From positions 258,979 to 322,978 of the forward strand of contig CP064975.1 in the NCBI GenBank assembly GCA_016699425.1: a stretch of DNA of 64,000 nucleotides. Direction: 5' to 3'. Source of the stretch: Candidatus Moraniibacteriota bacterium (GTDB lineage Bacteria; Patescibacteriota; Minisyncoccia; Moranbacterales; UBA1568). The notes below the pieces were generated by a model, which searched no databases, was not told where the DNA came from, and saw only the letters and a list, made by a program, of their open reading frames with translations. This document shows, piece by piece, positions 5,451-64,000 of this stretch. The position numbers and the translations under genes are program-made. Positions within the stretch are counted from its first letter, which is position 1; each line of letters starts with the position of its first letter.

Positions 5451-5484
5451 CACACCCCCTTCTTGTACAAGTTGTTTCATAAAT

Positions 5485-6472: not shown

Positions 6473-6483
6473 ACTATAGAACA

Positions 6484-7956: not shown

Positions 7957-8051
7957 ATGGGGAGTATGTATTATTGTACCGACGAGAACAAATGGCCCAA
8001 AGGCGTATCAATGGCGATTATACGGAAAAATAGAGAGGGTGTCCAGGTTAG

Positions 8052-24019: not shown

Positions 24020-24027
24020 AGGCTGGC

Positions 24028-24056
24028 TTGAAAAAGGGTGTTAGTAGGAGTAGAAT
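24028..24056 (+). promoter_or_regulatory. Sigma-70-like promoter (TTGAAA-N17-TAGAAT) for the DUF3800 gene
   Basis: cTTGAAAaagggtgttagtaggagTAGAATcgg. The same TTGAAA/TAG[AG]AT architecture recurs at 24884-24911. Confidence 0.5.
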
Positions 24057-24079
24057 CGGATGAAGTAAAAATCTCTGCC

Positions 24080-24709
24080 ATGTTGGTATTTATCGATGAA
24101 TCCGGAGATACGGGGCTGGATATCGCCAGAGGGGCAACACGCTATTTCTCTATGGTTTTGGTAGCATTTGAGGACCGAGAAGAAGCACAGCTTTGCGATG
24201 AGCGCATCGCTCTCTTGCGTCACGAGCTCGGTAAGCCTCCAGGATTCGAGTTTCATTTTCACGAGAATTCTGATCGGATTCGCGAGGCCTTTTTCAAAGC
24301 CGTCTTACCGTACGGATTCTTTTACTACGGTATTGTCATCAACAAGGGAAAACTTTTCGGGGAGGGATTCCACAACAAGGAATCGTTCTACAAGTATGCC
24401 TGCGGACTGCTTTTTGAGAATGCAAAGGATAAGCTGGAAAATGCAACAGTCATTATTGATGAATCCGGGAGACAGCTCTTTAAGTATCAATTGGCGAACT
24501 ACCTGAAGCGTCGTATGAATGCGGAAAGCGTGACGACTCGGATCAAGAAGGTGAGGATGCAGGATTCCCATCGAAACAATCTCGTTCAGCTTGCCGATAT
24601 GGTAGCGGGAGCGGTGACGCGGAGCTTGAATGAAGGTAAAAAAGACAAGACCGACTATCGGAAAATCGTGCAGTCGCGCGAAGTCTATGTCCAGATTTGG
24701 CCGAAATAA
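24080..24709 (+). CDS. DUF3800 family protein
   Basis: MLVFIDESGDTG N-terminus and C-terminal QLADMVAGAV motif. The track's GTG start at 24038 lies inside the promoter, so ATG 24080 is preferred. Confidence 0.65.
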   Translation: MLVFIDESGDTGLDIARGATRYFSMVLVAFEDREEAQLCDERIALLRHELGKPPGFEFHFHENSDRIREAFFKAVLPYGFFYYGIVINKGKLFGEGFHNKESFYKYACGLLFENAKDKLENATVIIDESGRQLFKYQLANYLKRRMNAESVTTRIKKVRMQDSHRNNLVQLADMVAGAVTRSLNEGKKDKTDYRKIVQSREVYVQIWPK

Positions 24710-24883
24710 GGAAAAAGAAAGCTCCCGGACCTATCCCTTGCGGGAAAGCGGCGATGAACGCCACAGTTTGGTTCGGGAGCACTTCCACCTATAAAATACG
24801 CTTTGCAGACCGTTTTGTCAACACTGAGTCAGCACTGATGTGGCAGTAAGTGAGCAGTCCAGAGTGGGCTAAAAAATTTGGCT

Positions 24884-24911
24884 TGAAAATGGGATAAAAG
24901 GGGAGTAGGAT
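24884..24911 (+). promoter_or_regulatory. Sigma-70-like promoter (TTGAAA-N16-TAGGAT) for the NYN gene
   Basis: gcTTGAAAatgggataaaaggggagTAGGATagg, 10 nt upstream of the ATG at 24922. Confidence 0.45.
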
Positions 24912-24921
24912 AGGGTTCAAT

Positions 24922-25413
24922 ATGAAACAGACTGGAAACAACTTCGCCTTCATTGATGCACAGAACCTGAACCTTTCTGTGAAACGACTTGGTTGGCGTC
25001 TGGATTATGCGCGTTTCAGAGTGTACCTGCGGGAAAAGTATGGCGTCAGCAAAGCGTACATGTTCATTGGTTTCATGGAAGAGCAGTCGAGTCTCTACCG
25101 ATCCCTCCAGGAGAAAGGCTATATCCTCATATTCAAGCCGACGCTTCGTCACAAGGATGGGACCATCAAGGGGAATTGTGATGCTGAACTCGTCCTGCAG
25201 GCGATGATCGATTATCAGGCGTACAAGAAAGCCGTGGTTGTCACGGGTGATGGAGATTTTCATTGCCTCATCCGGTATCTGATCGACAAAGAAAAATTAG
25301 AACAGCTTCTTGTCCCAGATCAGGCGCACTACTCGGCTCTCTTGAAGCGGTTCCCTTCGGGATTTCTTGCTTTTATTTCCCAGCTGCGGAATAAGCTGGA
25401 ATTTCGCCCCTAA
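24922..25413 (+). CDS. NYN-domain (LabA-like PIN-fold) putative ribonuclease
   Basis: FAFIDAQNL ... VVVTGDGDF with conserved acidic residues of the NYN domain. Confidence 0.65.
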   Translation: MKQTGNNFAFIDAQNLNLSVKRLGWRLDYARFRVYLREKYGVSKAYMFIGFMEEQSSLYRSLQEKGYILIFKPTLRHKDGTIKGNCDAELVLQAMIDYQAYKKAVVVTGDGDFHCLIRYLIDKEKLEQLLVPDQAHYSALLKRFPSGFLAFISQLRNKLEFRP

Positions 25414-25721
25414 AAAGAAAAGAACCCCGTAAGGACAGGACCTTAAAGGGCGCTTTTCGTCGTAATTCTACTAGAAGAGTAGCGCCGACGAAGTGCTTTG
25501 TCAAGGGCGGAAAAGTGCAAAGAGGTGGCTTTTTCTCATCTCTAACCAACTCATCCCACGCCCTCGTTTTTGTGGCTTGCCACGGAGCCCGGTTTCGGTG
25601 GTAGCGTGGCTTGAAAATGGGGTAAAAGCTTGCCCTGTTAGATTTGCGTTATCTCATAGGGGAGAGTAGGGTGATTCCTCGGGCTTTGGTATACAATGGA
25701 AAGGCTTGAATAAGGATATTT

Positions 25722-26804
25722 TTGACTATGGAAAAGAAGTCCTCGAATACGAATTTGAATAAGGCAAGCAAGGCAAAGAAAGATGAGTTTTATACTCAGC
25801 TTGTTGATATTGAAAAAGAGCTCAAGCACTGCAAAGATCAGTTTCGTGGCAAAGGGGTTTATTGTAATTGTGATGATCCTTTTGAAAGTAACTTCTTCAA
25901 GTATTTTGCAACCAACTTCAATGCACTTGGATTAAAGAAACTTATTGCTACTAGCTATAAGCCGTCCCCCATAGCTAATACGCAACTAAATCTATTTGGT
26001 GATATTACAGTACTATCTACGCCAAAAGGTCGTCCTAAGATAACCGCCAACAAATTCATTATCAATGAAGTTGATGATATAGATGGAGATGGTGCATTTG
26101 ATTTGCGTGATATTGCCGAACAGCTCAAGGCTAATAAAAACAATGAATGGGCGCCATTAAAGGGAGAGGGAGACTTTAGAAGTAAAGAAAGTATAGAGTT
26201 GCTAAAGCAGGCTGACATCGTGGTGACAAATCCGCCGTTCTCTCTATTTCGGGAATATGTTGCACAGTTGATGGAGCATAGCAAGAAATTTCTTATTCTC
26301 GGAAACCAGAACGCCATAATTTATAAGGAAATTTTCAAGTTCATAAAGGAGAACAAAATGTGGCTTGGGTATGACAATGGTGGAACGAAGTGGTTTCAAG
26401 TCCCAACCGATTACAACATACCAACAGAATCAAGAATAAAAACCGAAAACGGAATAAAGTACTTCAGCATGGGAAGTATAGTGTGGTTTACAAACATGGA
26501 TACAACTAAACGCCATGAGGAGCTGACTTTATATAAAAAATATTCATCAGAAGAGTACCAAAAATACGATAATTATGATGCAATTGAGGTACCAAGGTTT
26601 CTTGATATTCCGATGGATCACGATGGTGTAATGGGTGTGCCGATTACTTTTCTTGATCGGTATAACCCGGAACAATTTGAAATTGTTGGATCAAATCGAG
26701 GCATAGACCAAGACTCGAATAAAATATATGGCCGAGGATCTTTTTTGAATGGTAAAGAAACCTTCAAGCGACTTTTTATAAAAAATAGAATGGCAAAAAA
26801 GTAA
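25722..26804 (+). CDS. N6-adenine DNA methyltransferase (NPPF motif)
   Basis: DIVVTNPPF catalytic motif IV, an N-terminal DEFYTQ region, and low GC. Confidence 0.75.
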   Translation: MTMEKKSSNTNLNKASKAKKDEFYTQLVDIEKELKHCKDQFRGKGVYCNCDDPFESNFFKYFATNFNALGLKKLIATSYKPSPIANTQLNLFGDITVLSTPKGRPKITANKFIINEVDDIDGDGAFDLRDIAEQLKANKNNEWAPLKGEGDFRSKESIELLKQADIVVTNPPFSLFREYVAQLMEHSKKFLILGNQNAIIYKEIFKFIKENKMWLGYDNGGTKWFQVPTDYNIPTESRIKTENGIKYFSMGSIVWFTNMDTTKRHEELTLYKKYSSEEYQKYDNYDAIEVPRFLDIPMDHDGVMGVPITFLDRYNPEQFEIVGSNRGIDQDSNKIYGRGSFLNGKETFKRLFIKNRMAKK

Positions 26805-26805
26805 T

Positions 26806-27909
26806 ATGAAAATCGAACTAAACAGAATTCCGGTTCGTGAAGTGGTTACGGGCTACAAAGATAGTGCCGAGGAGGGCGTTGTTGCCTATGAGGGTAAGCT
26901 TGATGTGCGACCGAAGTACCAGCGTGAATTTGTTTACAAAGATAAGCAGCGCAATGCGGTAATTGATACTGTCCGAAAGGGATTTCCCCTTAATGTGATG
27001 TATTGGGTAAAGACCGACGAGGGAAATTTTGAAGTGCTCGATGGGCAACAAAGAACAATAAGTTTAGGTCAATATGTAAACGGTGATTTCTCTGTGGATT
27101 TTAATGGTCGCCTTGCTATGTTCCATAATCTCACCAAAGAGGAACAGGAGCAGATTCTGAACTACGAACTGATGATTTATTTCTGTGAGGGGACAGATAA
27201 AGAAAAGCTGGATTGGTTCAAGATCATAAATATTGCTGGTGAAAAGCTGACCGATCAAGAGTTGCGTAACGCTGTTTATACCGGTTCTTGGCTTTCAGAT
27301 GCAAAACTCAAATTCAGTAAATCAAACTGTGCCGCATACCTTTTGGCCAATGATGGCGGCTCACTAGTAAATGGTTCGCCAATTCGGCAAGAGTATTTGG
27401 AGACCGCTCTTCTATGGATTAGTAACGGCGAGATTGAGGATTATATGGCCAAACACCAGCACGACGAGAACGCTGAAGAGTTGTGGCAATATTTTCAAAA
27501 TGTCATTGCCTGGGCACATAAAATTTTCACCAAATATCGCAAAGAGATGAAGGGGGTTGAGTGGGGCAGGTTGTACAATAGGTATAAAGATACCGCTTAC
27601 GATTCTCGAGAGATTGAGGAGAAAACACTGGAACTTATCAATGATGATGAAGTTCAGAGTTTAAAAGGCATCTACGAATATATTTTGACGGGCGAAGATA
27701 AACATCTAAATCTTCGTCAATTTGAGGATAAGACAAGAAGAAAAGCTTACGAAAAACAAAAAGGCAAATGTGTTTGGTGTAAAAAAACTTTTGAATTTGA
27801 AGAAATGGAAGCCGACCACATTACCCCCTGGCACGAGGGTGGCAAAACAACTGCGGAAAATTGCCAAATGCTCTGCAAGCAAGATAACCGAACGAAATCA
27901 GGAAAATAG
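26806..27909 (+). CDS. DUF262 (ParB-like, DGQQR motif) plus C-terminal HNH nuclease protein; putative restriction or modification-dependent nuclease
   Basis: VLDGQQRT motif near the N-terminus. C-terminus CVWCKK...ADHITPWHEGGKTTAENCQMLCKQDN is an HNH motif. The start is 2 nt after the methyltransferase stop, so the genes are translationally coupled. Confidence 0.7.
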   Translation: MKIELNRIPVREVVTGYKDSAEEGVVAYEGKLDVRPKYQREFVYKDKQRNAVIDTVRKGFPLNVMYWVKTDEGNFEVLDGQQRTISLGQYVNGDFSVDFNGRLAMFHNLTKEEQEQILNYELMIYFCEGTDKEKLDWFKIINIAGEKLTDQELRNAVYTGSWLSDAKLKFSKSNCAAYLLANDGGSLVNGSPIRQEYLETALLWISNGEIEDYMAKHQHDENAEELWQYFQNVIAWAHKIFTKYRKEMKGVEWGRLYNRYKDTAYDSREIEEKTLELINDDEVQSLKGIYEYILTGEDKHLNLRQFEDKTRRKAYEKQKGKCVWCKKTFEFEEMEADHITPWHEGGKTTAENCQMLCKQDNRTKSGK

Positions 27910-28100
27910 ACCGCCGTGGGGATTTTCAATGAAGAGAAGCAAATTTAAACTTGCCTTTTTCTTTTATTTGTGGCAGTGTGAGAGTATAGAGTAAAAAATA
28001 AAAACCACTCCAAACACAGAAGATCGGAAAGAGTCATAATCCCCAATGCGATTATACCACCACCCCGGACTTCCGGGGTGGTTTTGTTTCATTGTAAGTT

Positions 28101-29285
28101 ATGTGGGTAAAGACATCAGGAGTAAGCGCAGTTGAGATTGACGATGATGTTTTTCGAACAATTCTCAGCTTTTATCCGGAAGAAAAATTGCATGAGTCAG
28201 AATTCTTTCAGAGCTGTTTTAGTCATGGCTCTGTAAGCTATACATTGTTGCGCGCAGAGTCAAATAAAATATTTCTGCCTTGGCAGCTATTCTTCCTGAA
28301 TAAAAAGAATCTCAAGAAGCAGCTCAAGCATATAAATGAACAACGCGAAGACAGGTTGTCTGCGGCCTTTTTTACAAAAAGAAAAGGCTCAGGAGAACAT
28401 ATGTCCAGAAGGATAGTGGATAGACTCATTCGTCTTCAGGGGTTTGTTGTTTCAAAAAAGAAATATCAAAAGAATAGTTTTTGTAATTCGCTTAATTCAT
28501 TAAGCCCAACCGATGCAGCCAATTCTCTCATTGAATACTTCGGGGTTGATCTAGTGGAATTCAGAGGCAAGAAGACAAAGCGAGAAGCACTCGAGTATTT
28601 AATTAAAAAAATAGGAGCAGGACAGATTAATGTGTCTCGGGGAGTAAGAGTCTTGCTTCCTATTTATCAACAAATCGACAAGATATACAAAAACACCAGT
28701 GGATTCGCCCTAAAGGATGACTGCCTGCCTTTTATATTTTTACCAGGAGATATAAATCCTGAAGAGGCTACAGGAAGGCAAATATATAGTCTGTTTTATC
28801 TTCTGGCTTCCATTGGGATAAATGACTATAGCTTTTTTATAGATCAAGATCTTGAAGTTCAGGTAGTAGGCGCAAAAAATCTTGAGAAATGGAAGCATGA
28901 TCTGGTTTCATGCATCATATTGCCAACAGACTCGTTGACTACAATACCGACTAGTCTGGACGATATTATGAAGATGAGCGACAAATATAAGGTAACTCCA
29001 ACAGCTGTCATTGTTGTTCTTAGGGCTCGGGGCATCATTAATAGTGCACTCTTCGACTTCTTAAAGAGTGAATTAAACCTATCTGTAAAAACCTTTCAAC
29101 AAGGATGGTCCGCAAAAATCTCTACTTCTGTAAAAAAATTTTGTGGTCAAGAAGCTTCTGCCGCCATAAATATGCTTATCCGGGGCGGAAAACTGAAATC
29201 AATCACAGCCCAGTATCTTATCTTTGGCCGGGTGAATAAAAGTCAGTATAAGAAATATTTTTCTCAGATACAGAACACTGTATGA
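28101..29285 (+). CDS. Hypothetical protein (394 aa), partner of the downstream PIN-like protein
   Basis: Low-GC ORF with a 4-nt overlap with the next gene. No confidently recognised motif. Confidence 0.4.
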   Translation: MWVKTSGVSAVEIDDDVFRTILSFYPEEKLHESEFFQSCFSHGSVSYTLLRAESNKIFLPWQLFFLNKKNLKKQLKHINEQREDRLSAAFFTKRKGSGEHMSRRIVDRLIRLQGFVVSKKKYQKNSFCNSLNSLSPTDAANSLIEYFGVDLVEFRGKKTKREALEYLIKKIGAGQINVSRGVRVLLPIYQQIDKIYKNTSGFALKDDCLPFIFLPGDINPEEATGRQIYSLFYLLASIGINDYSFFIDQDLEVQVVGAKNLEKWKHDLVSCIILPTDSLTTIPTSLDDIMKMSDKYKVTPTAVIVVLRARGIINSALFDFLKSELNLSVKTFQQGWSAKISTSVKKFCGQEASAAINMLIRGGKLKSITAQYLIFGRVNKSQYKKYFSQIQNTV

Positions 29286-29713
29286 AAGTGATAGATACAA
29301 ATTTTATTATTAACGCATATCGCGAAGAAGTTCTCTTGAAGAACGAATACTTTGCTGCACCCGATGTGTTAGAGGAGCTAAAGATTGATCCAGGCATTAA
29401 AATTCCAAGTAATGTGAAGGACGGAAGAGGGGGTATTTTTTTCAGTATGCCAGTCTATCTAGGGAACTATAGCTACTTTTTGAATAAGTACTGCCCCTCA
29501 TTTTATAATATGACTAGTTTTGGAGACATCTCTACCTTAGCCTTCATAAGAACAGTTCTTGAGAATATCAAAAGACAAGCGACGCTGCCTACGATGGAAG
29601 AAAATATTATTTTGTTTGCAGACGATGAGAAACTCTCGAAGAGGGTGATAAAAGAGTTTTCTAGCGAAGTCAAGATTATTAAATTTGCTAATTCGGAAAA
29701 GAATCTTTTATAG
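29282..29713 (+). CDS. PIN-like domain protein (possibly DUF4411-type)
   Basis: MKVIDTNFII N-terminal strand with a conserved Asp. Further acidic residues (VLEEL, LFADDE) are consistent with a PIN fold. Confidence 0.4.
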   Translation: MKVIDTNFIINAYREEVLLKNEYFAAPDVLEELKIDPGIKIPSNVKDGRGGIFFSMPVYLGNYSYFLNKYCPSFYNMTSFGDISTLAFIRTVLENIKRQATLPTMEENIILFADDEKLSKRVIKEFSSEVKIIKFANSEKNLL

Positions 29714-29916
29714 ATACGAAAACTAGTTGGTTATTGTACTAAAAGTAGTAAAGAATAATGACGAAACTCTATCTCGATATCGATCGGGTGTAGCAAAGGG
29801 AATAACCAGGAGCCTCTCCTCTCTTTTCCGACCAACAACATTCCGACATTCTTGAGAATGTGAGAATGTTTCTCGATCGAGATTGGCGGTATGTGGGGCG
29901 GGTGTAGAATAGGGGC

Positions 29917-30501
29917 ATGAAAGAGATGGAAAAATTCGTCCGGCTCTACCGCGAAAAGAAGTATGAGCAGTGTCTCGTGGCGCTCCGGGCATTCATCGCC
30001 AAGTATCCCAACGAGACGAGTGCACTCGGCTACGCCGGACTGTGCTATCTCGATCTGGAACGATCCTCAGAAGCGGTTCCCTATTTCGATCGGTGCCTGG
30101 AGGAGAAGGCAGGGAGCAATCATTTCTGGGTGCTCCGGGGCGATTGCTACTACGATCAGGGTGACTTCGCACAGGCGATGCACGACTACTCCATCTCGCT
30201 CGCACTGGAACCGGAGAACTGGGCCGTCTACGACAAGATCGGTCACTGCCACCATTTCTTGGGTCAGGGGGAGCGGGGAATAGCGTGGGTAGAGTATGCG
30301 TTCGAACGAGGACGGCAACCGGACACCATGCTGATTCTCAGTATGCTGTTCGAAGAGAATGGCCGGCTCGATGAGGCGCTCGCTCGGGCGCGTGCTGGGG
30401 CCAGGGAGTTCCCGCATGACAAACGATTTCGTGAGCGTTTGCAGGAATTGAAAAGGATCCCGCGATCGCGCGAGGACTCGAAACGTAAACCTGAGAAATG
30501 A
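29917..30501 (+). CDS. TPR-repeat protein
   Basis: Repeated TPR-like helical motifs (ALGYAGLCYLDLERSSEAVPYFDRCLE; WVLRGDCYYDQGDFAQAMHDYSISL). Confidence 0.6.
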   Translation: MKEMEKFVRLYREKKYEQCLVALRAFIAKYPNETSALGYAGLCYLDLERSSEAVPYFDRCLEEKAGSNHFWVLRGDCYYDQGDFAQAMHDYSISLALEPENWAVYDKIGHCHHFLGQGERGIAWVEYAFERGRQPDTMLILSMLFEENGRLDEALARARAGAREFPHDKRFRERLQELKRIPRSREDSKRKPEK

Positions 30502-30634
30502 CTCGACTCTCTCTCGATATCAAATGGTGCTGATCGGGCGGGGAGGGCGGTGGCCCCTTTTCCTGTTTCTCTTGATACTGATATTCCAATATTCTTGAGA
30601 ATGTGAGAATGTTGTGCTAGGGTAGGGGTGAAAT

Positions 30635-30937
30635 TTGGTGTCATGGATAATTATGGCTGGAATTAAAACTTACAAGCAGCTGGAGCGGTATTTCAAGGGT
30701 GTCGCCAACCATCGTCGTATCAGCATCCTACTGCTCGTCAGTCAGTCCGAGGGGATCGCGCTCGATGATATGAGCCGGCGCCTCGATTGCAATTTGAAGA
30801 CCGTCTCTGAGCATACGCGCCGCCTCGTCCAGGCCGGACTTTTGAATAAAACCTACCAGGGCCGCACGGTCGCGCACAGCCTCTCACCTTATGGGAAAAA
30901 GATGCTCGCTTGTCTCGAGATATTCCAACATTCTTGA
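30635..30937 (+). CDS. ArsR/SmtB family transcriptional regulator
   Basis: YKQLERYFKGVANHRRISILLLV...LDDMSRRLDCNLKTVSEHTRRLVQAGLL is a winged-HTH of the ArsR family. Confidence 0.8.
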   Translation: MVSWIIMAGIKTYKQLERYFKGVANHRRISILLLVSQSEGIALDDMSRRLDCNLKTVSEHTRRLVQAGLLNKTYQGRTVAHSLSPYGKKMLACLEIFQHS

Positions 30938-31032
30938 GAATGTGAGAATGTTACCCATTTGGTAATCTTGAGAGGGGCCTGAGAATAACAAGGTGTAGAA
31001 TAGAGGGGGCTAATACATCACATCAATCCATT

Positions 31033-31521
31033 ATGTCAGAAGCGAAATTTACCAAGGATCTGGGGCATGCGACGCTGGTCGTGGAGCGTGTGTTCGACGC
31101 GCCGGTCGCGAGCGTGTGGGACGCCCATACGAAGAGCGAATGGCTCGAACAGTGGTGGGCGCCGAAGCCCTGGAAGGCGGTGACGGTCGAGATGGATTTC
31201 CGCGAGGGCGGACGCTGGTTCTACTATATGCTGGGGCCAGACGGCGAGCGGCACTACTGCATCCAGGCATATGACGGAATCGTGGCGGGCCAGAGCACCG
31301 TCGGCGATGACTATTTCTGTGACGAACAGGGTGTGAAGAAAACCGACATGCCCGTCTCGCGCTGGAAGACGGAACTCTTTGCCGAAGGGACTGGTACCAA
31401 ACTCGTCTCGACGGTGACGTACGCGACTCAGGCTGAGCTCGAGACGGTCCTCGCGATGGGGATGGAAGCTGGATACGCGATGGGGCTGAGTCAGCTCGAG
31501 GCGCTCCTCAAACAGGCATAA
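31033..31521 (+). CDS. SRPBCC superfamily (Aha1/AHSA1-like) protein
   Basis: LVVERVFDAPVASVWDAHTKSEWLEQWWAPKPW is the Aha1-N/START-like fold. It is commonly paired with ArsR regulators. Confidence 0.7.
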   Translation: MSEAKFTKDLGHATLVVERVFDAPVASVWDAHTKSEWLEQWWAPKPWKAVTVEMDFREGGRWFYYMLGPDGERHYCIQAYDGIVAGQSTVGDDYFCDEQGVKKTDMPVSRWKTELFAEGTGTKLVSTVTYATQAELETVLAMGMEAGYAMGLSQLEALLKQA

Positions 31522-31664
31522 GCGGATTTTGTGTTTACTTTGGGACACATCAAGGCGGCGCATGGCGCGGTGGAAAGTGTGGTGGATTTCCCGCGATGTA
31601 AGTGCAGGCGCTCATCACGCTCGGCGTGAAACGTTATGAAGGGATAATTCCGAGTGTTAACCCT

Positions 31665-31961
31665 ATGTCAGAATCAAAAGACAAAACCGGACCACTGCAT
31701 CGGATGCCACAGGATCTGCGGGCGTTCCTCGCGGCGCACCCGAGCGTCGCCACACTCTGGGACACGCTCACTCCGCTCGCGCGCAACGAATGGATCTGCT
31801 ATGTGACGATTGTGAAGAAAGCCGAGACGAGAGTCGATCACCTGCGTCGACTCGGCGAGGACCTCAGTCGTGGAGAGCGTCGGCCCTGCTGCTGGCCCGG
31901 CTGCCCGCATCGCCGCCCGAGCGCCGCGAAGTGGTTCGCCCCGCGTCCGAAGAAGGGTTGA
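31665..31961 (+). CDS. YdeI/OmpD-associated family protein
   Basis: LTPLARNEWICYVTIVKKAETRVDHLRRL motif. Confidence 0.55.
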   Translation: MSESKDKTGPLHRMPQDLRAFLAAHPSVATLWDTLTPLARNEWICYVTIVKKAETRVDHLRRLGEDLSRGERRPCCWPGCPHRRPSAAKWFAPRPKKG

Positions 31962-32042
31962 TAACCTCGATCCCGGCCGAACCATAGCTCCCCCCTCGTA
32001 TCTATTCTCAAATTCTTGAGAACTTGAGAATATCTACGTCCC

Positions 32043-32330
32043 ATGCTAGGATCGGGGGCTATGAAAAACTATCGCCAACTCGAACGCCATATGAAGGGGG
32101 TGGCCAACCATCGTCGGCTCGAGGTCTCCTTCCTCTTGGAGAAGTCACCGGAACTTTCGGTCAGCGAGATAGCCGAAGCACTCGAGGTCAACTTCAAGAC
32201 TATCTCCGAGCACGTCCGGCGCTTGGCTTTGGCGGGTATCGTCATGAAGCGCAATGATGGGAACGCTGTCCGCCACGCCCTCACACCGCTTGGGAAATCT
32301 ATTCTCAAATTCTTGAGAATATTGGAATAG
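32043..32330 (+). CDS. ArsR/SmtB family transcriptional regulator (paralog of 30635)
   Basis: YRQLERHMKGVANHRRLEVSFLL...VSEIAEALEVNFKTISEHVRRLALAGIV. The 3' end encodes the GAGAAT palindrome. Confidence 0.8.
   Translation: MLGSGAMKNYRQLERHMKGVANHRRLEVSFLLEKSPELSVSEIAEALEVNFKTISEHVRRLALAGIVMKRNDGNAVRHALTPLGKSILKFLRILE
32301..32328. promoter_or_regulatory. Palindromic GAGAAT operator-like motif (ATTCTCAAATTCTTGAGAAT); one of five copies
   Basis: Perfect inverted repeat ATTCTCAA-ATT-CTTGAGAAT. Related copies lie at 29847-29868, 30588-30610, 30928-30950 and 32004-32032, all flanking the two arsR genes. Confidence 0.5.
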
Positions 32331-32409
32331 GGCGCATACTTTTCCGTAGCTGAGGAGGGGGAGAGCGAGCGGGTGTAGAATAGAGGTGTAACAATTATCA
32401 TTTTCCAAT

Positions 32410-55911: not shown

Positions 55912-56247
55912 TCAGGTGAGAGGTTGCTGTTGCGGTGGTGACTTCATGCGAGCCAGGCATTGTCGTACCATCCGCGCGAGAATGCGGTAGTGGGTCAGAT
56001 ACCACTGGTCTCCGAGTATGATCCCGTGTACTTTGGCCACTGCCCGGAAATGTTTCCGAAAGCGACTGTGATCGAGCTGTCGCTTCCCGGCTTGATCCTC
56101 CATGAGCGCGAGAATCTGCGCACGCATGGCGTAGTAGTAATCAGGGTGATTGCGTTTCGCCACATTGCCCTCCCTTTGGTAAGTTACTTTCGTGATAGGA
56201 TACACCGTTAGTACAGGATTGTCAACGAGGTCGAGTTGCGATAGCAT
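55912..56247 (-). CDS. Hypothetical protein
   Basis: 111-aa minus-strand ORF with no recognised domain. Confidence 0.35.
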   Translation of the reverse strand: MLSQLDLVDNPVLTVYPITKVTYQREGNVAKRNHPDYYYAMRAQILALMEDQAGKRQLDHSRFRKHFRAVAKVHGIILGDQWYLTHYRILARMVRQCLARMKSPPQQQPLT

Positions 56248-56258
56248 GACTACTCACT

Positions 56259-57530
56259 ATGTCTCATCCCTGGCAGAAGAAAATCAGTGTGACTCGCTTC
56301 CTGAAAAGGAACTCATTGCCTGAAACCCCGGGCATATATTTCTTTCTGGGTCTGGACGATGAAATCCTCTACATCGGCAAGGCCACAATCTTGTCAGACC
56401 GGGTGAAAAGCTATTTCGGCCCCGACCTGGAGGAGACGCGTGGGCCGAAGCTCGTCCTCATGCGTGAGCGCGTCCTGGCCATCGGTTGGATCCAGCTCGA
56501 TTCGGTGCTCGAGGCGCTCATCCGGGAAGGACAGCTCATCAAGCAGCACTTACCGCCGTACAATACCGATGCGAAGGATGACAAGAGCTATAACTTTGTC
56601 GTCATCACGAAAGAAAACTATCCGCGCATCCTGCTCGTCCGCGAGCGCGACATCGAGACAGGGAAATTCGTCTTCCCGATCAAGGAGAAATTCGGGCCCT
56701 ACCCGCGCGGGGAAGCACTTCGGACGGCACTTCGGATCGTGCGGCAGATCTTCCCGTATCGGGACAAGTGTGTGCCGTATGCCGAACTCACTGATGAACA
56801 AAGGAAAAAAGCGCGCCCGTGTTTCCAGGCGCAGATCGGCCTGTGCCCGGGCGTTTGTGCCGGCACGATCTCGGCGGTCGAGTATCGGAAGACGGTGAAA
56901 CGGATCGCACTATTTTTTGGCGGACAGAAAGCCGATCTCGTGAAGAATCTGGAACGCGAGATGAAAGTCGCAGCCAAGGACTTGCGTTTTGAGGAAGCCC
57001 AGGAGATCAAAAAGCTTCTCTTTGACCTGGGCCATATCCGCGATGTCGCGCTCATGAAGGCGGACCGCGAGGAAACATCCGCAGCGCGGATCGAAGCGTA
57101 TGATACGGCACACCTCCAGGGCGAGGCGACGGTCGGCGTCATGACGGTCGTGCAGCACGCACTCGCGAAGAAGAGCCAGTACCGGTTGTTCAAGCTCCGC
57201 AATGCTCATGGGGGCGATGACCTGTCAGCCTTGGAAGAAATTCTGACGCGCCGCCTGGCGCACAGCGAGTGGACCTTGCCCGAGCTCATCGTCGTCGACG
57301 GGGCACTCCTTCAAAGTGATGTAGCGACCCGGATCTTGAAGAAGCGGGGACTGACCATCCCCGTCGTCGGTGTGGTGAAGAATGCGAAGCACCGGCCTGA
57401 CCGCATCATCGGGCCACGTGGGTTGGTGAAGCGCTTCGAACACGATATCCTCCTCGCCAATGCCGAAGCGCATCGTTTCGCCATCGGCTTCCACCGCAAA
57501 AAGAAACGTGAACAATTCCTCCAGGGGTAG
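56259..57530 (+). CDS. uvrC: Excinuclease ABC subunit C, compact form (GIY-YIG + Cys-rich + UVR + RNase-H-like endonuclease domain, with no C-terminal HhH)
   Basis: PGIYFFLGLDDEILYIGKA..L..RVKSYF GIY-YIG domain, RPCFQAQIGLCPGVCAG, UVR motif AAKDLRFEEAQEIKKLL, and an EAYDTAHLQGE...VVDGALLQ RNase-H-like domain. Only 423 aa. Confidence 0.85.
   Translation: MSHPWQKKISVTRFLKRNSLPETPGIYFFLGLDDEILYIGKATILSDRVKSYFGPDLEETRGPKLVLMRERVLAIGWIQLDSVLEALIREGQLIKQHLPPYNTDAKDDKSYNFVVITKENYPRILLVRERDIETGKFVFPIKEKFGPYPRGEALRTALRIVRQIFPYRDKCVPYAELTDEQRKKARPCFQAQIGLCPGVCAGTISAVEYRKTVKRIALFFGGQKADLVKNLEREMKVAAKDLRFEEAQEIKKLLFDLGHIRDVALMKADREETSAARIEAYDTAHLQGEATVGVMTVVQHALAKKSQYRLFKLRNAHGGDDLSALEEILTRRLAHSEWTLPELIVVDGALLQSDVATRILKKRGLTIPVVGVVKNAKHRPDRIIGPRGLVKRFEHDILLANAEAHRFAIGFHRKKKREQFLQG
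57411..57530. repeat. Direct repeat R1 (uvrC 3' end), partner of 60862-60981
   Basis: The first ~75 nt are identical apart from one mismatch, and the remainder encodes a near-identical peptide (GPRGLVKRFEHDILLANAEAHRFAIGFHRKK...FLQG*). Confidence 0.8.
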
Positions 57531-57646
57531 TGTTTTTTTGGAAATCGAGGTTTTACCCTCTTGAGTAGAGGTTCTAGTGGTGTCTAGACTTCGGAGTAGC
57601 TAAAATTGAGGCTTACAAGTCTCTTTTTTGCACCCCCGGAGAGAAC

Positions 57647-58333
57647 GTGAGAACCTGGTATACTTTGTTTATAATGATGACTCTGGATAACAAAACTACC
57701 TTTGCAGTAATCGCCATGCTCATAAACGCAGGGTGTTTTATTAATTACGTACGAAGTATCCTGCAACATAAAACGAAACCACATGCTTACACTTGGCTTA
57801 TCTGGTGTATCACACAAGGAACGGCTGTAGCAGCTATCTGGTATGGGAATGGCGGTTGGGGAGCTTGGGCATTGATAGTATCCACAATCTTTGTTGCTCT
57901 TGTATTTTTACTTTCTCTTCGGTACGGAACACGAAACATAACCAGGAGCGATACCGCTATTCTTTTCTTCGCCCTGCTTGCAATTGTCGTATGGTGGCAA
58001 TTAGATAACCCATATCTCGCCGTGGCTATGGTTTCCATCATTGATGTTATTGGGTATATCCCTAGTTGGCGGAAATCTATTAGCGCTCCCTGGTCTGAAG
58101 CAGTGTCATCGTGGATAGCTTCCCCAGTTGGGTATATCTTTGCCATGCTTGCGCTGATGGAATACAATTTTCTCACCCTTACCTACCCCGTATTACTTGT
58201 GCTGGCGAACCTTATCCTAGTAACGATTTGTCTTTACTACAGAAGAACAATTCCTAAGCCACTACCAATAGGCTCTAAATATTGTCTGTCGGATGGGATA
58301 ACTAAAAAGAGCCTTACAAAAGCCTCTTTTTAG
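57647..58333 (+). CDS. Hypothetical multi-TM membrane protein (island gene 1)
   Basis: About seven hydrophobic helices in a low-GC region. Confidence 0.45.
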   Translation: MRTWYTLFIMMTLDNKTTFAVIAMLINAGCFINYVRSILQHKTKPHAYTWLIWCITQGTAVAAIWYGNGGWGAWALIVSTIFVALVFLLSLRYGTRNITRSDTAILFFALLAIVVWWQLDNPYLAVAMVSIIDVIGYIPSWRKSISAPWSEAVSSWIASPVGYIFAMLALMEYNFLTLTYPVLLVLANLILVTICLYYRRTIPKPLPIGSKYCLSDGITKKSLTKASF

Positions 58334-58393
58334 TGCTCGTAAAGTACGCGTGCTATATTGAGTATGTATTTATGAAGAGACAAACTTAGCCAT

Positions 58394-59755
58394 ATGTCGA
58401 TTGAATCGAAGTTTTATGCTGTTCCGGATGAATCCAGGATACCTTCAGGAAAAAAAGATAAGGTGATGACTGAGGTGGATAGGTTGCAAGGGACATTAGA
58501 AAGGCTATTTCCCATGCCATGCAAATACGGTGCATGTGGGGTTGGGGAGTACTCGGGGGTGACTATAATGGACCGCTTGATCGACACGGAAGAGACCAGA
58601 ATAGGAAAAGCCCCCACGGACAAGGCAAAAGAACAGCTTACAGGCGTTGCTAACAGAGCTGTGGAAAATAATAACCCGCTTGCTTTGGTTGGAATTTATG
58701 GAACGCCCAGAAGTTTAGATCGACCGGAATTAAATGTTGCTCAGCTTGCGGATTTGTCAGCTATTATGATGGTGCAGGCAGCCATGGATCGGATTCATTC
58801 AGCTCATTCTCCGGGAGTGAGCTATAGGGCTGTTGATGAAGATCTTACCGCTCTCTGGTTAGATATAGCACAGCACCCACTAGGAAAGGAGGGCGGGGAA
58901 AAATTTAAGTCCATTTACAGCAAATACTATAAGGATAGGAAGCGGCTCATTGATTTACTTGAGCAAAAAGGATTAATTAATGTTGGTAAAACCAAGATTG
59001 AGTTGCTTTCGGAGAGTGATCTATATAAGGGTTCATTGGAAAAAAAAGGAGATAGTATGTCTGCGGAAGAGTCTTTTTTAGGGAAGTGTGAGACAGTGAG
59101 GCCGCACATCCTTAATTACTTGACTGCAAGTGGAGAAATAATGGATAAACTTTATGGGGAAGATGACAAGCAATGGGTAAGCGCGGAGGATGATCCTCAG
59201 CTTTGGAGTAGGTATCAACTTTTGATTAGCGAAACAAAGGAGTGTAAGGACCTTCTGAACACGGGATGGCAGGGTCTTATCCCTCCAGAAATGAGGAAAT
59301 ATTATCTAGAGAAGTTTAGATGTATATTAGGCGGGGCTGACTTACGGGCCAGTGACCCGAAACTTCTTTTTCATGTAGCGACGTATCTTTCTTCTACCCT
59401 AGTAAAATTCCAAGCGGGAACTTTAACAGAGGGGATCCCTGCAGGCACTCCTGTTATTCGAGTACCTCTTGTACGACCAGTTGATGGCAGACCCTCTTCA
59501 CATCAGTCTTTGGTCCCCTTGAGGACGTTACCAAAAGTGAAGGGCGATATGGATAAAAGAGTTAGCCACTCTAATAGGGCTGCTTGGTTAAGTGTTGCGG
59601 TCCAGGGCAACAAGAAATTGAGGCTAGTAGATACGGCCGAGTACGCGGAACTTCCGGAGGAGTTAGTAGTTCCCGTACAAATTTACATGGTTGCACCCGA
59701 TAACGGGGCAGGGTCGTATCTCGTAGATACGGCTATCATGTTGTCCGATTCATAG
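58394..59755 (+). CDS. Hypothetical protein, 453 aa (island gene 2)
   Basis: Long low-GC ORF with no recognised motif. Confidence 0.45.
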   Translation: MSIESKFYAVPDESRIPSGKKDKVMTEVDRLQGTLERLFPMPCKYGACGVGEYSGVTIMDRLIDTEETRIGKAPTDKAKEQLTGVANRAVENNNPLALVGIYGTPRSLDRPELNVAQLADLSAIMMVQAAMDRIHSAHSPGVSYRAVDEDLTALWLDIAQHPLGKEGGEKFKSIYSKYYKDRKRLIDLLEQKGLINVGKTKIELLSESDLYKGSLEKKGDSMSAEESFLGKCETVRPHILNYLTASGEIMDKLYGEDDKQWVSAEDDPQLWSRYQLLISETKECKDLLNTGWQGLIPPEMRKYYLEKFRCILGGADLRASDPKLLFHVATYLSSTLVKFQAGTLTEGIPAGTPVIRVPLVRPVDGRPSSHQSLVPLRTLPKVKGDMDKRVSHSNRAAWLSVAVQGNKKLRLVDTAEYAELPEELVVPVQIYMVAPDNGAGSYLVDTAIMLSDS

Positions 59756-59782
59756 TAACTCGAATATCATTCGGAAAGAGTT

Positions 59783-60844
59783 ATGTCCTTAGAATCGCGT
59801 TTAACATTTTCAAGCCGAGAACGCAGTGAAACGATGGATGAAGCCGAAGCGGGTGTGATTCGCTATTTATCCAGAATACAGGAAGCTCAGCGGGAGTTTG
59901 ATGACATTGTAGCAGGGAAAACTGTCTTGCTTGTCGATTCTGGACAAGGTGTTCCACAACATGCGTTTGCCAGGAGGGTAGAGAATCTCAGGGGCATGGG
60001 ATTTGAGGCCCTCTCGAAAATGGTTATCGAAAAAATTTTTGGCGGAAAGGTTCCCGCTAGTGCGCTTGAAAGCTTCCAGCAGTTTTTGGGCCATGGTGTT
60101 CGGATTGTCCATCGAGATGTAGCGGATACAACAAGCCTGCCGAGCGATATTTCCGCGGTGGTATTTTCAGGTTCACCTGCAGATGTCAGTAAGGCATTTA
60201 GCGACCCATCTAGGTCGATACACAGAGATAGTCGGTTGACCCATGGTCAGGTTTTTCAGTTCGTCCGAAGAGTGTATGAGGGGGCGGCGGAAAAAAATAT
60301 ACCCATAATTGGTTTCTGCTATGGGCATCAAGCCATGGCTGCACTAGAAGGGGGGAAAGTAAGCCCCTTGAAAGAGCCTCGACAGAGGTTTCAAAAGATG
60401 GAATTACTGGATGACTCAAGAGAGTTTCTCGGAGGAGTTTTTGTCGATCGCCCCCCTCTTTCCATCCACGGCGGAGAACTTCCGGTCAACCATAGCGAAG
60501 CAGTAACGCCAAACCCGCAGCGCAGTATGCTCCTCATGCATACTACTGAAAGAGATTCATTAGTAGCAGAGGGTCTGCTTCATCTATCTGGGCTGGAAAA
60601 CAAGTATAGCGGCACTCCTCAAGAAAGAGCCGCACTTCTCCAGTCTCTTCTCGAAGACGATAAGGGGGCGGCGAAGCTCGGGATTCAGGCTCACCCAGAG
60701 ATAGCTGGTTTTTATCCCATGATGAACTTTTCGTTGGGAGCTGACCCGAGCGTATTCCGTAGATCAGCAGAAAATGATATATCCCCGGAGATGTTACGAT
60801 TGATTGCGCGGTTCCTCCAGCTTCACAAGAAATTTAGAGCTTGA
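59783..60844 (+). CDS. Protein with a C-terminal class-I glutamine amidotransferase-like domain (island gene 3)
   Basis: IPIIGFCYGHQAMA nucleophile-elbow Cys, with a later QAHPE His/Glu pair. The N-terminal ~180 aa are unassigned. Confidence 0.5.
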   Translation: MSLESRLTFSSRERSETMDEAEAGVIRYLSRIQEAQREFDDIVAGKTVLLVDSGQGVPQHAFARRVENLRGMGFEALSKMVIEKIFGGKVPASALESFQQFLGHGVRIVHRDVADTTSLPSDISAVVFSGSPADVSKAFSDPSRSIHRDSRLTHGQVFQFVRRVYEGAAEKNIPIIGFCYGHQAMAALEGGKVSPLKEPRQRFQKMELLDDSREFLGGVFVDRPPLSIHGGELPVNHSEAVTPNPQRSMLLMHTTERDSLVAEGLLHLSGLENKYSGTPQERAALLQSLLEDDKGAAKLGIQAHPEIAGFYPMMNFSLGADPSVFRRSAENDISPEMLRLIARFLQLHKKFRA

Positions 60845-60861
60845 TCAAGTTTCTCTGGGCC

Positions 60862-60981
60862 GGGCCACGTGGGTTGGTGAAGCGCTTCGAACACGATATC
60901 CTCCTCGCCAATGCCGAAGCGCATCGTTTCGCTATCGGCTTCCATCGGAAGAAAAGGCGTGAGTCGTTTCTCCAGGGCTAA
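60862..60981. repeat. Direct repeat R2 (displaced or ancestral uvrC 3' end)
   Basis: See R1. It ends with an in-frame stop (…SFLQG*). Confidence 0.8.
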
Positions 60982-61207
60982 GAGAACCCTTAGGGAAGCC
61001 CTTACTCGACCCTAGACAGAACAACTGAAAAAGTGTATACTGTCGCTTCGAACCTTAATAATCACAGACCGTTTGCCAAAGCACAGAGTCCTTTCACGTG
61101 GAGGTCGAACCTCCAAGTGAAGAGAGGTTTCTCTGCTCTGGCAAACTCGAATCTTTCGAGAGCTTATAGCGGCTACCCGCAAGGACTAGCATAGTTAGGA
61201 GACTGCA

Positions 61208-61915
61208 ATGTGCACCTCTATTTCATTCCCGCAAGTTACGAAGATTCACGACACTCTCGTGCAAAAGGGTGTCACACCGGAAGTGTTTCAAGAAAGATTG
61301 TTAGGTGAAGGCCGTATCGCGGATGTCGCCGAAGCTTGTGTGGCCGGAACCATCCCGCCTCGCGACGAGTTCCGCAAGTTCCTCGGCCTCGGCCCGCTTT
61401 ACAAGACCGACAAGCACGGCCGTATCCTCGTCACCCTCACTGGCCGTGGCTGGACGAATGAGGAGTGGTTCAAGCACGGCGAGGCTGTCGGGATGAACTT
61501 CACCAAATGGGCGAGCGATATTCTCGGCAAGCCCGACTACAACGAGAAGCATCGTCTGGAACCCGGCAAGCAATACACGGTGGCGCTCTTGTTCGGCAAG
61601 AAGGAGTTCGACACTGATGTCGAGCGCACGACAGCAAACCTGCGGGCCCGAGGCGAGCGTGATTACGGGAAATCCGATGACCTTCGTGGCGAACTTGCAC
61701 TCCTCATCCGGGAAGCCATCTCTGACGAACAGTTGGAGCGTTGGAGGATCGACTACACCGCCGTGCTCCACGAGCCCATCATTAGTTCCGGCGGTAACCC
61801 GAGCATCCTCGGCTCGGACCGTTTCGACGATGGGCAGCAGGTGCGTGCCTACGTCGGTGGCCCGGGCGACCGCTGGGGCGGTCTTGGAGCCTTCGCGTTC
61901 CCCGTCTCGCAATAA
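61208..61915 (+). CDS. Hypothetical protein
   Basis: 235-aa ORF with no recognised domain. Confidence 0.4.
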   Translation: MCTSISFPQVTKIHDTLVQKGVTPEVFQERLLGEGRIADVAEACVAGTIPPRDEFRKFLGLGPLYKTDKHGRILVTLTGRGWTNEEWFKHGEAVGMNFTKWASDILGKPDYNEKHRLEPGKQYTVALLFGKKEFDTDVERTTANLRARGERDYGKSDDLRGELALLIREAISDEQLERWRIDYTAVLHEPIISSGGNPSILGSDRFDDGQQVRAYVGGPGDRWGGLGAFAFPVSQ

Positions 61916-62182
61916 GCACTCTGGACTTTGTATCTTTGGTCTCTTAGACCCTTGATACTGAGTCCTTTGACCCCGCATTTTACCGAACGGTAGCGGCGGG
62001 GTTTTCTTTTTCTCAATCCGACAATGGGGAGCGGATACATGAAATATCGGCGACCTTGGCCGTTGGATGGTCGGGCTCGCTCTCTCAATTCCATACTTTT
62101 CACTCTAGCAGGTGCGGCGGTTTACCCACGCGCAAAAATCTGCTATACTCGGAAACAATTCGTCTTCTGTACCGCACAACGT

Positions 62183-64000
62183 ATGCCAGGAAAAAAGAGC
62201 GTCATTGAAATTCGTGGAGCTCGCGTGAACAATCTGAAGAACATCGACATTGACATCCCGCGGGACTGTCTGGTCGTGGTGACGGGTTTGTCGGGATCAG
62301 GGAAGTCGTCGCTCGCGTTTGATACCCTGTACGCCGAGGCGAACCGGCGCTATGTCGAGAGTCTCTCGGCGTATGCCCGGAACTTCATGGAGGGGTATGA
62401 CAAACCGGATGTCGACACGATCCGCAACCTGTCGCCGGCTATCTCGATCGACCAGAAGAGCGTCTCGCGCAGTCCGCGCTCGACGGTGGGCACAATGACG
62501 GAAGTGTATGACTATCTGCGCCTGCTCTTTGCCAAGGTCGGCCAGCCCCATTGCCCGAAATGTGCTCAGACGCTTTCCCGTAAGACACCGGTCGCGATCC
62601 TCGAAGAAATCCTGTCTTTGCCAAACAATTCGCCGCTGGTCTTTGCCGCCGACAGCCCGCTCCTAGCCGGGAAGAACTGGGGAGAGGCCCTCAGACTCAT
62701 CGATGACTGGGGCTTTGTCCGGGTCTGGTACCGGGACACCGCAGTCGCTTTGGCCGAACTGCGCAACACCGTTGATCTGATGGCACTGGCAGAGTGTCTC
62801 GTCATCGTCGATCGGTTGAATCTCGATACGGCGCGGCCAGATAAGGAACGCATGCTCGATTCGATCCATACGGCCTTTCAGACTGGGCAGGGGGTGATGC
62901 AGCTCTTGGTCGACGGAGAGCGTCTCCATACCTATCACGAGCACTATCGCTGTGAGGCCTGCCAGATCGAACTGCCCGAGTTTTCACCCGCCCATTTTTC
63001 CTTCAATAGTCCCGAAGGTGCCTGTCCGACCTGCGGCGGCCTTGGTGTCACGCTCGAATTCGACCCCGCACTCGTCATCCCCAATGAATCCTTGTCCATT
63101 TCTGAAGGGGCGATCCGACCGTGGAGCAAGATGAACAGCGATCGCGGCAATGGCAATGGGCCGATGGCGCTCCTGCGCGAGATGGCGAAGCGCGAGAAGA
63201 TCCCGCTCGATGTGCCGGTGAAGAAACTTTCACAGAAACAACGGACCTATATCTTGCGCGGTGATGCCAAGCGCGACTTGGCCGACGAATTTGGTTTCCC
63301 TGGTGTGCTCGGCTTGCTCGAACGCAAATACCGCGAGACGAAGTCTGATCACCTGCGGGCGGAAATTGAGACCTTCATGTTCATGCGGCGCTGTCCGGAT
63401 TGCGGTGGGAAACGGCTCCGCTCCGAATCGCTCTCTGTCTTCATCGCTGGAAAAAACATCAACGATTTCGTCGGTCAATCCATTGAAGATCTCCGTGGAT
63501 TTTTCCGGGACCTGCGTCCTCAGCTCTTGCAAGAAGGCGAAGTGAAATCACTCATCGAGCCATTGTTCAATGAAATGGAGATGCGGCTCTCGGCCGTCGA
63601 TAAGGTGGGCCTGGGCTATCTCTCGCTCTCACGAAGCGCGGATACGCTCTCGGGTGGCGAGGCGCAGCGGATTCGACTCTCGGTCCAGATCAAGTCCGGC
63701 CTCTCCGGTATTATTTATGTTCTCGACGAACCATCGGTCGGGCTGCATAGCCGTGATACGGACCGGCTTATCCGGGCGCTCGAGGAGTTGCGTGGTGCCA
63801 ACAACTCGCTCGTCGTCGTCGAACATGATGTCGCGATTATGCGCAAAGCGGATTGGATCATCGACCTCGGTCCTGGTGCGGGCAAAGAGGGCGGTGAGAT
63901 TATCTTCTCGGGCACACCGGAAAAGCTCATGAAGTCGAAACTCTTGACGGGGCAGTACCTGTCCGGTAAACGTCTGGTACAGGAAGCAAGGGCGCCACGC
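62183..64000 (+). CDS. UvrA paralog (second excinuclease ABC subunit A-like protein), truncated at the window end
   Basis: [18 protein letters not shown], zinc-finger cysteines and LSGGEAQR signature. It is diverged from the 17846 copy in the region equivalent to the UvrB-binding domain (no RKGE motif). Confidence 0.85.

Follow-up and report, generated by a model that had tools for sequence, protein, structure and literature searches.

We analysed a window of 64 kb from the chromosome of a Candidatus Moraniibacteriota bacterium (the whole stretch of 64,000 nt, whose positions are used throughout), in which a small islet of low-GC DNA lies at the 3′ end of uvrC, between two copies of a direct repeat. 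The uvrC gene (56259-57530, plus strand) encodes a protein of 423 aa, a short form without the C-terminal helix-hairpin-helix domain, which matches PF08459 (3.3e-29), GIY-YIG, the UVR motif and TIGR00194 (6.7e-84), and which is identical to QQR78941.1 (IPJ68_01565) from a Ca. Moraniibacteriota metagenome-assembled genome (MAG). The end of this gene is the attL-like repeat copy R1 (57411-57530, plus strand). The inserted islet follows (57531-60861, plus strand; 3,331 nt, or 3,451 nt with one repeat copy), and the attR-like copy R2 (60862-60981, plus strand) closes it. Three open reading frames (ORFs), all on one strand, occupy the islet, with spacers of 143, 60, 27 and 17 nt from R1 to R2. They encode a seven-transmembrane (7-TM) protein with a PQ-loop/SWEET/cystinosin-type fold, a putative small-solute transporter (57674-58333, plus strand); an enzyme-like protein of 453 aa whose fold is remotely that of PvcA/IsnA (isonitrile synthase) and which has an additional beta domain at its C-terminus (58394-59755, plus strand); and a 353-aa enzyme resembling class-I glutamine amidotransferases (GATases) and peptidase C26, with an intact Cys-His-Glu triad (59783-60844, plus strand, PF00117). 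Beyond R2 lies the native downstream gene (61208-61915, plus strand; 235 aa, function unassigned), which has 80% identity to the ORF that follows uvrC in the closest relative.

The islet stands apart from its surroundings in composition: its GC content is 45.7%, against 57.4% in uvrC and 56.5% downstream, and its GC content at third codon positions (GC3) is 0.42-0.45, against 0.71-0.73 in the flanking genes. An earlier note on this DNA, made from the letters alone, had described 3.3 kb of AT-richer sequence with three same-strand genes, and this description holds. A terminator-like hairpin with a T-run (57608-57633, plus strand) matches the consensus 78 nt past the new uvrC stop, although such matches are no more frequent in the region than in shuffled sequence. 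No RNA family of Rfam was found in the islet or upstream of uvrC, no tRNA was found near the insertion site, and a repeat search returned no terminal inverted repeats at the islet ends.

The same repeat search of the window yielded R1 and R2 as a direct repeat of 120 nt with 89% identity and a spacing of 3451, and alignment agreed with it; the recurrence of the last ~120 nt of uvrC (57411-57530) at 60862-60981, noticed previously, is therefore real. So is the near-identity that had been assigned to the first 75 nt, although the perfect stretch measures 71 nt (72 with the preceding C). This 71-nt core occurs exactly twice in the window, where none is expected (100 shuffles). The two copies show no difference in positions 1-71 and 14 differences in positions 72-120 (Fisher p=1e-6), the first at 57482 and the next at 57494, and the longest identical run to the right of the 71-nt block is 11 nt. 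R1 is thus made of a part equal to R2 (57411-57481) and of a foreign uvrC tail (57482-57530) that encodes …HRKKKREQFLQG and ends in a TAG stop, while R2 would encode …HRKKRRESFLQG and ends in TAA. Eleven codons are unlike in the two copies and just two of them change the amino acid (K to R and Q to S), in keeping with the claim that the rest of the repeat encodes a near-identical peptide and a stop. Since the differences are mostly synonymous, both tails have diverged inside working uvrC genes and not after a local duplication. R2 itself is non-coding: an in-frame stop lies 8 codons upstream (60835-60837), and the sole in-frame start candidate before R2 is a TTG. It starts 17 nt 3′ of the stop codon of the GATase-like gene, with a GGGCC-GGGCC tandem placed exactly at the islet/R2 boundary, and in the alignment uvrC homology is absent upstream of R2 position 1. 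This excludes that R2 is part of a second uvrC paralog, a scenario raised beforehand as one that would overturn the insertion. Within the identical portion of both copies we also noted an 11-nt inverted repeat (GAAGCGCTTCG / CGAAGCGCATC, 25-nt spacer; 57428-57438 / 57464-57474, repeated at 60879-60925). It may be a protein-binding site or a mere consequence of the codons, and we do not take it as a recombinase site.

Relatives show what the locus looks like without the islet. A scan for UvrC among GTDB species representatives gave 79 loci, of which 16 belong to close Moraniibacteriota relatives, and the 90%-identity UvrC cluster added further empty sites, one on a Logan contig (L173) and three from JGI (L174-176; protein on 8 contigs). 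In five independent relatives (L007, L173 and L174-176) the site is empty: uvrC is directly followed by a 235/236-aa gene and then by uvrA (in L174-176 by a 236-aa gene and uvrA), and a counterpart of the islet is absent. Inspection of uvrC 3′ ends in related genomes, which had been proposed as a check, thus yielded empty sites. In the closest relative, L007 (UvrC identity 97%), ~230 nt separate uvrC from the ortholog of 61208-61915. Window positions 56170-57529 align to L007 7912-9271 and positions 60877-63976 to L007 9168-12275; the two alignments overlap in L007, and R1 and R2 therefore map to its single uvrC end. Furthermore, the R2 tail (60936-60981) is identical at 46/46 positions to the last 46 nt of uvrC in L173 and L174-176, and all four complete UvrC proteins in the 90% cluster have the R2 peptide at their end, none the R1 peptide …KKKREQFLQG. 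As the R2 tail and the right flank both match the empty sites, R2 is the original uvrC end, displaced 3.45 kb downstream. In the left arm of the repeat, close relatives differ by 3-19%. A tblastn search of the 16 Moraniibacteriota uvrC loci found none of the three islet genes.

The present uvrC, on the other hand, has R1 as its true 3′ end and terminates in a foreign tail of 16 codons. This tail has 72% identity to the native tails at empty sites, 87% to the uvrC tail of another Moraniibacteriota species (L010) and 98% to the short-read contig L092 described below, and its GC3 is high, unlike that of the low-GC cargo. By these comparisons the R1 tail is foreign but clearly stems from a uvrC, that of another Moraniibacteriota species. 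The swapped part corresponds to UvrC residues 408-423 and the RNase H domain match to residues 273-408; the swap lies at or beyond the end of the domain match and should therefore be tolerated. Canonical UvrC has ~600 aa and a C-terminal helix-hairpin-helix domain; across this clade UvrC has 420-436 aa and lacks that domain, as it does in all close relatives, and the TIGR00194 score of the window protein (282.6) is slightly below the trusted cut-off (285.45).

The 3′ end of uvrC in this Moraniibacteriota lineage has therefore recently received a 3.45-kb unit, made of a 120-nt segment resembling a uvrC 3′ end, the gene of the PQ-loop-fold membrane protein, the gene of the PvcA-fold enzyme and the GATase-like gene. 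The empty sites, the native R2 tail and the R1 tail with 72% identity to native tails bear out the earlier reading of an insertion into the uvrC 3′ end that brings a replacement end. That the event is recent is argued by R2, which is non-coding yet undecayed.

Two Logan short-read contigs of run SRR11674038 bear on the junctions. The first (L091) equals window positions 59612-60890 at 100% identity and ends 30 nt inside the repeat, as expected for a k=31 graph meeting a repeat. The second (L092) consists of adapter, 17 nt of uvrC upstream of the repeat, R1 and 881 nt of islet. It has 17 mismatches to the window, of which 16 fall in 57398-57473, one is at 57491 and none lies in 57492-58411. In its uvrC part it is like the L174 allele (FEKDILL, not FEHDILL), and its tail is of R1 type; at least two uvrC alleles thus co-occur in this sample. 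The foreign tail is thus joined to two different uvrC alleles, that of the window strain and that of L092, in the same native-to-foreign switch interval of ~20 nt (57474-57493, no strand assigned; CGTTTCGCCATCGGCTTCCA), which also marks the end of R1/R2 identity. We dropped the use of the L091 end point as a guide to the element-side arm in the L092 strain, because an assembler can remove low-coverage variants. Recombination has also left traces in the body of the gene. Compared with L007, L173 and L174, uvrC is a patchwork in which zero-difference stretches stand beside 48-nt bins with 8-13 differences, and the pattern is specific to each relative; against L007, identity is 98-100% in 56319-57280 and 85-91% in the flanks. 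This mosaic points to active homologous recombination in the species complex.

No machinery for integration was found on board. Searches of Pfam, NCBIfam, PHROGs and PADLOC gave no recombinase or transposase match for the three islet ORFs, two of which encode folds unrelated to such enzymes; Pfam showed no tyrosine or serine recombinase among the 48 ORFs of the 64-kb window either. The absence of an integrase, pointed out from the start, is thereby upheld for the islet and for the window. PHROGs and PADLOC returned nothing beyond a weak generic GATase match, and therefore nothing points to a phage origin or to a known defence system. A transposon or insertion sequence was rejected as the identity of the islet, given the 120-nt hybrid repeat, the lack of inverted repeats at its ends and the lack of a transposase. 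The only related match in the window is a truncated Mutator-family transposase (10542-11219, profile positions 204-362 of 379), situated just upstream of uvrB (11411-13534).

We place a probability of roughly 0.8 on the insertion having been a single crossover of circular DNA without a recombinase of its own, because the insert is flanked by in-register direct repeats, each of which is a hybrid of host and incoming sequence. The incoming circle would have borne a uvrC-like segment (attP-like), with the chromosomal uvrC end in the role of an attB-like site, and one reciprocal crossover (Campbell-type integration), at 57474-57493 or to the left of it, would yield the hybrid direct repeats. The predicted attP junction would be composed of …GATCAAGTTTCTCTGGGCC, the 71-nt core, the R1 tail and GTGTTTTTTTGG, and the predicted attB junction of upstream uvrC, the core, the R2 tail and GAGAACCC. 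As it stands, uvrC reads into the foreign 16-codon tail and its stop, and the native end is preserved intact 3.45 kb downstream as R2. In the version that we tentatively put forward as the likeliest, though at somewhat less than even odds, the crossover was carried out by a site-specific recombinase acting in trans or since lost, and the islet would be a remnant or satellite of an integrative element, that is, a minimal cis-mobilizable element (CIME) or something close to it; in that case, homologous recombination or gene conversion between the copies would have preserved or produced the perfect identity over 71 nt. The classical architecture and the switch interval common to two alleles speak for this version.

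The kind of structure is familiar, since the decay of elements is known to leave islets at gene 3′ ends that are flanked by repeats and lack an integrase, and current understanding is not overturned. CIMEs have lost the genes for integration and transfer but retain attL and attR, and they usually sit at the 3′ end of a target gene (PMC5704250). The islet resembles those related to ICESt1/ICESt3 of streptococci in being a small island without integration or transfer genes and in having attL- and attR-like direct repeats, one of which forms the 3′ end of a conserved protein gene. It differs in its host, a bacterium of the candidate phyla radiation (CPR), in its target, uvrC, and in its 71-nt identity block, which is long and lies on the 5′ side of a diverged replacement tail; furthermore, neither an integrative and conjugative element (ICE), an integrative and mobilizable element (IME) nor a prophage of this site specificity is known or turned up here. 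With the islands, prophages and IMEs that tyrosine or serine recombinases insert at the 3′ ends of tRNA or protein genes, the islet shares the element-borne gene end, the hybrid repeats, the composition contrast and the empty sites. It has the att-like repeats R1 and R2, a restored target gene and relatives with empty sites, as an integrative island should, but it encodes no tyrosine, serine or DDE recombinase, carries no phage or conjugation genes and is a unit of just 3.45 kb. One literature search found no mention of uvrC as an integration target, and for a CPR host none is reported as far as we found. The single crossover of a circle carrying a gene fragment, as in the Campbell-type integration of suicide plasmids, and homology-facilitated recombination in transformation give the product seen here, hybrid direct repeats without a dedicated recombinase, although they are known mainly as laboratory or rare events.

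Several observations weigh against the proposed integration through a site-specific recombinase. With the crossover fixed at 57474-57493, such a model does not by itself account for the 100% identity of the R2 arm (60862-60932) to the host arm, in which close relatives differ by 3-19%, and an extra step of gene conversion is needed. Neither a circular form nor excision was observed, and L091, which runs from the end of the GATase-like gene into 30 nt of repeat, fits attR and attP alike. The islet contains no integrase pseudogene, and its tight spacers leave no room for a decayed integrase gene. No cognate integrase-bearing element with the same att specificity was found in uvrC loci or in the collections searched, and a second uvrC end within 8 kb was seen in 0/76 uvrC loci. 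The collections were likewise empty of the uvrC-tail pattern, the islet DNA and the islet proteins: viral contigs gave no match to the degenerate tail pattern or to the family of the 453-aa protein, plasmid and phage collections none to the islet DNA or to that protein, and JGI metagenome contigs and viral contigs lack the junction 24-mer. Given the limited sampling, these negatives amount to absence of evidence. Finally, the 31-mers specific to L092 end at ~57521, before the stop codon; the link of the second allele to the foreign tail is solid, and its link to the islet proper rests on the path chosen by the assembler.

A close rival to the site-specific version dispenses with a dedicated recombinase altogether. 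Circular or re-circularised DNA of 3.45 kb, taken up by natural transformation, would have been integrated Campbell-fashion by RecA through the 71 or more nt of uvrC identity and could loop out in the same way; we regard this as plausible, although we would not bet on it. It agrees with the lack of a recombinase in the islet and the window, and with the position of the 71-nt block, which stops just where the homology is no longer good enough for exchange (longest run rightward 11 nt). Heteroduplex repair during homologous recombination would also account for the identical left arms, the patchwork of uvrC among L007, L173 and L174 is a sign of such recombination at work, and the joint in L092 falls within the longest identical run beside the tail. 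Furthermore, Patescibacteria are reported to have genes for homologous recombination and competence and to be naturally competent (PMC12455944; PMC10633639). Natural transformation, however, imports linear single strands, from which a monomeric circle is established inefficiently, and 71 nt is near the lower limit for efficient exchange by RecA. A prior event would also be needed to place the uvrC fragment beside the cargo, so that the first capture stays unexplained, and the few natural examples documented put its prior below that of decayed site-specific elements.

Mobility of any kind is dispensed with if the islet stems from a one-off, homology-facilitated illegitimate recombination, in which linear DNA of another Moraniibacteriota species, with the three genes after its uvrC, was anchored by homology on the left and joined at GGGCC to a second recipient uvrC end on the right. 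The tandem at the islet/R2 boundary, the tail derived from a related species and the lack of element-like genes favour this account. Yet on the recipient map the right joint lies upstream of the left one, an order that a single duplex cannot give and that calls for two sister copies; when ends are joined at a microhomology, normally one copy of it is left and not two; the three genes stand beside uvrC in 0/16 Moraniibacteriota relatives; and the same tail and switch interval recur on a second uvrC allele, although later homologous recombination could mimic this. We consider such an event quite improbable. Far less probable still is an artefact of assembly or a strain chimera, in which reads of co-occurring strains or of an episome were mis-joined to give the repeat or the placement of the islet. 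The sequence does come from a MAG, and sample SRR11674038 holds at least two uvrC alleles; against this, the independent Logan contigs reproduce two junctions (uvrC-R1-islet in L092, with the second allele, and islet-to-repeat in L091), the flanks are collinear with five relatives, and a collapse of strain variants would not put 3.3 kb of low-GC coding DNA between two unlike uvrC tails. The duplication of the repeat by the assembler, raised in the earlier note as a way in which the insertion could fail, is unlikely in view of the same two junctions. A local duplication of the last 120 nt, or the remnant of a uvrC paralog, with later drift, is scarcely credible. It would explain the shared register of the two copies and the stop codon at the end of each, but the differences are very unevenly spread (0/71 against 14/49) and mostly synonymous in spite of the non-coding state of R2, the R2 tail matches orthologous tails at 46/46 positions while the R1 tail matches other species, and no uvrC homology precedes R2.

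Two of the three cargo proteins of the islet belong to families without profile annotation. The membrane protein has the seven-helix fold, built from two three-helix bundles, that it shares with PQ-loop, SWEET and cystinosin 7-TM carriers, without a sequence match to Pfam PQ-loop or MtN3; its family is widespread, mostly in Patescibacteria where a source is named. The 453-aa protein, 100% identical to IPJ68_01575, belongs to a family seen so far only in CPR bacteria or on unnamed metagenome contigs. A profile search had been suggested for it: no family profile matched (Pfam and NCBIfam at E<=0.01), and a profile of 23 homologs found nothing among PDB sequences at E<=10, although a fold could be assigned. 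Its three-dimensional fold is that of PvcA/IsnA, shared with the PvcA, IsnA and Dit1 isonitrile synthases (Pfam DIT1_PvcA); the identity to these is just 12-15%, without a match at the sequence level, and the protein differs from them by an extra C-terminal beta domain of ~100 aa and by the lack of an oxygenase partner. Indeed, no neighbour of the PvcB/IsnB-type Fe(II)/2-oxoglutarate oxygenase kind was found in the window or in the nine distinct contexts of its homologs (11 loci). The third protein matches PF00117 with 38.1 bits (cut-off 22.8), and Cys179, His304 and Glu306 are invariant in 31 family sequences, which confirms the class-I GATase-like domain with a Cys-His-Glu triad seen at first reading. 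The fusion that had been read into the same gene could not be demonstrated: the whole 353 aa align end to end with a family of 340-370 aa. An exhaustive search gave 55 cluster representatives of this family with a best identity of 37%, where a word-based search returned the query itself only. The domain and the triad are those of class-I GATases and of peptidase C26 (PuuD-like gamma-glutamyl hydrolases), whereas the small and divergent family of ~350 aa lacks a synthase partner; judged by these features, the protein is probably an active class-I amidotransferase or gamma-glutamyl hydrolase.

The three genes were also looked for as a conserved cassette elsewhere, and none was found. Homologs of the 453-aa protein lie in nine different neighbourhoods (11 loci: L001-L006, L086-L090), with GNAT acetyltransferases, glyoxalase/Ble-like proteins, methyltransferases and Exo_endo_phos enzymes, and in none of the nine is there a homolog of the membrane protein or of the GATase-like protein, or a uvrC; long flanking repeats are absent around these homologs as well. 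The GATase-like family is rare, with one true member (L093) in the JGI metagenome scan, in another operon and without a PvcA-like gene. As the genes form no cassette elsewhere, the islet is not a conserved operon but a mosaic, in which CPR genes of low GC are joined to a Moraniibacteriota uvrC end of high GC. The cargo probably confers an accessory capacity to make, modify or transport a small molecule derived from amino acids; the guess of small-molecule biosynthesis or modification made earlier is compatible with the folds, although the three genes make up no conserved cassette. The apparent operon of L093 (125-6951) combines the GATase-like relative with an NAD(P)HX-dehydratase-like kinase, a GCS2 carboxylate-amine ligase and a PGM1-like ATP-grasp protein, and is preceded by a TrwB/VirD4-type coupling ATPase; this context is a hint that the family takes part in small-molecule chemistry of a gamma-glutamyl or peptide type. 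On L003 the 453-aa homolog is found beside a bAvd-like gene and an RVT_1 reverse transcriptase (98-665 and 664-4583). A pair of 117-nt repeats with 85% identity adjoins the Avd-like gene and the reverse transcriptase, the latter of the type found in diversity-generating retroelements. The arrangement looks like such a retroelement, and the repeat pair resembles its template and variable repeats.

Elsewhere in the window, a second low-GC island (24000-30000, 39-47%) is of defence type and comprises a DUF3800 protein (24038-24709) adjoining a DUF3800-IX RNA (24717-24780, minus strand, 50 bits), a NYN nuclease (24922-25413), an EcoRI-type adenine methylase (25722-26804), an endonuclease with GmrSD_N and HNH domains (26806-27909) and an ORF of 394 aa without assigned function; no integrase was found in it. 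Five 34-nt repeats (GATATTCCAATATTCTTGAGAATGTGAGAATGTT, partly palindromic) lie 297-1082 nt apart at 29837-32331, and a pair of 56-nt repeats at 30662 and 32061. Another low-GC stretch (3000-8000, 41-47%), with His_Phos_1, PEP-utilizer and LysE genes, adjoins five tRNA genes on the minus strand (Asp, Met, Met, Ile and Ala; 6623-7956) and may be a further acquired segment. In addition to the uvrA expected by synteny downstream of the islet, a second UvrA-like gene is present at 17846-20440.

The entry route of genomic islands in Patescibacteria is rarely resolved. Such islands are reported to be common in these bacteria (PMC12455944). The locus described here is exceptionally clear-cut: it offers both junctions, the native uvrC end that was displaced, several empty sites and a second host allele, and the islet itself brings no recombinase. 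It is thus a good test case for whether islands enter CPR genomes via trans-acting integrases or via competence and RecA. Our analysis also assigns folds to two families that were without profile annotation, a CPR-restricted PvcA/IsnA-like enzyme and a 7-TM PQ-loop-like protein. A bolder view, which we hold to be unlikely, is that the islet works as a minimal mobile cassette that gets by without a recombinase, its own or a helper's: the captured gene end would serve as an att site by homology, host RecA would loop the cassette out and re-insert it through the 71-nt repeats, and transformation would spread it among competent Moraniibacteriota. A secondary possibility is that the CPR-only PvcA-fold enzyme, the amidotransferase-like enzyme and the PQ-loop carrier together make or import a new metabolite derived from amino acids. 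If the bolder view is true, recombinase-free cassettes of this kind would give CPR bacteria a general means, so far unrecognised, of shuffling small sets of accessory genes.

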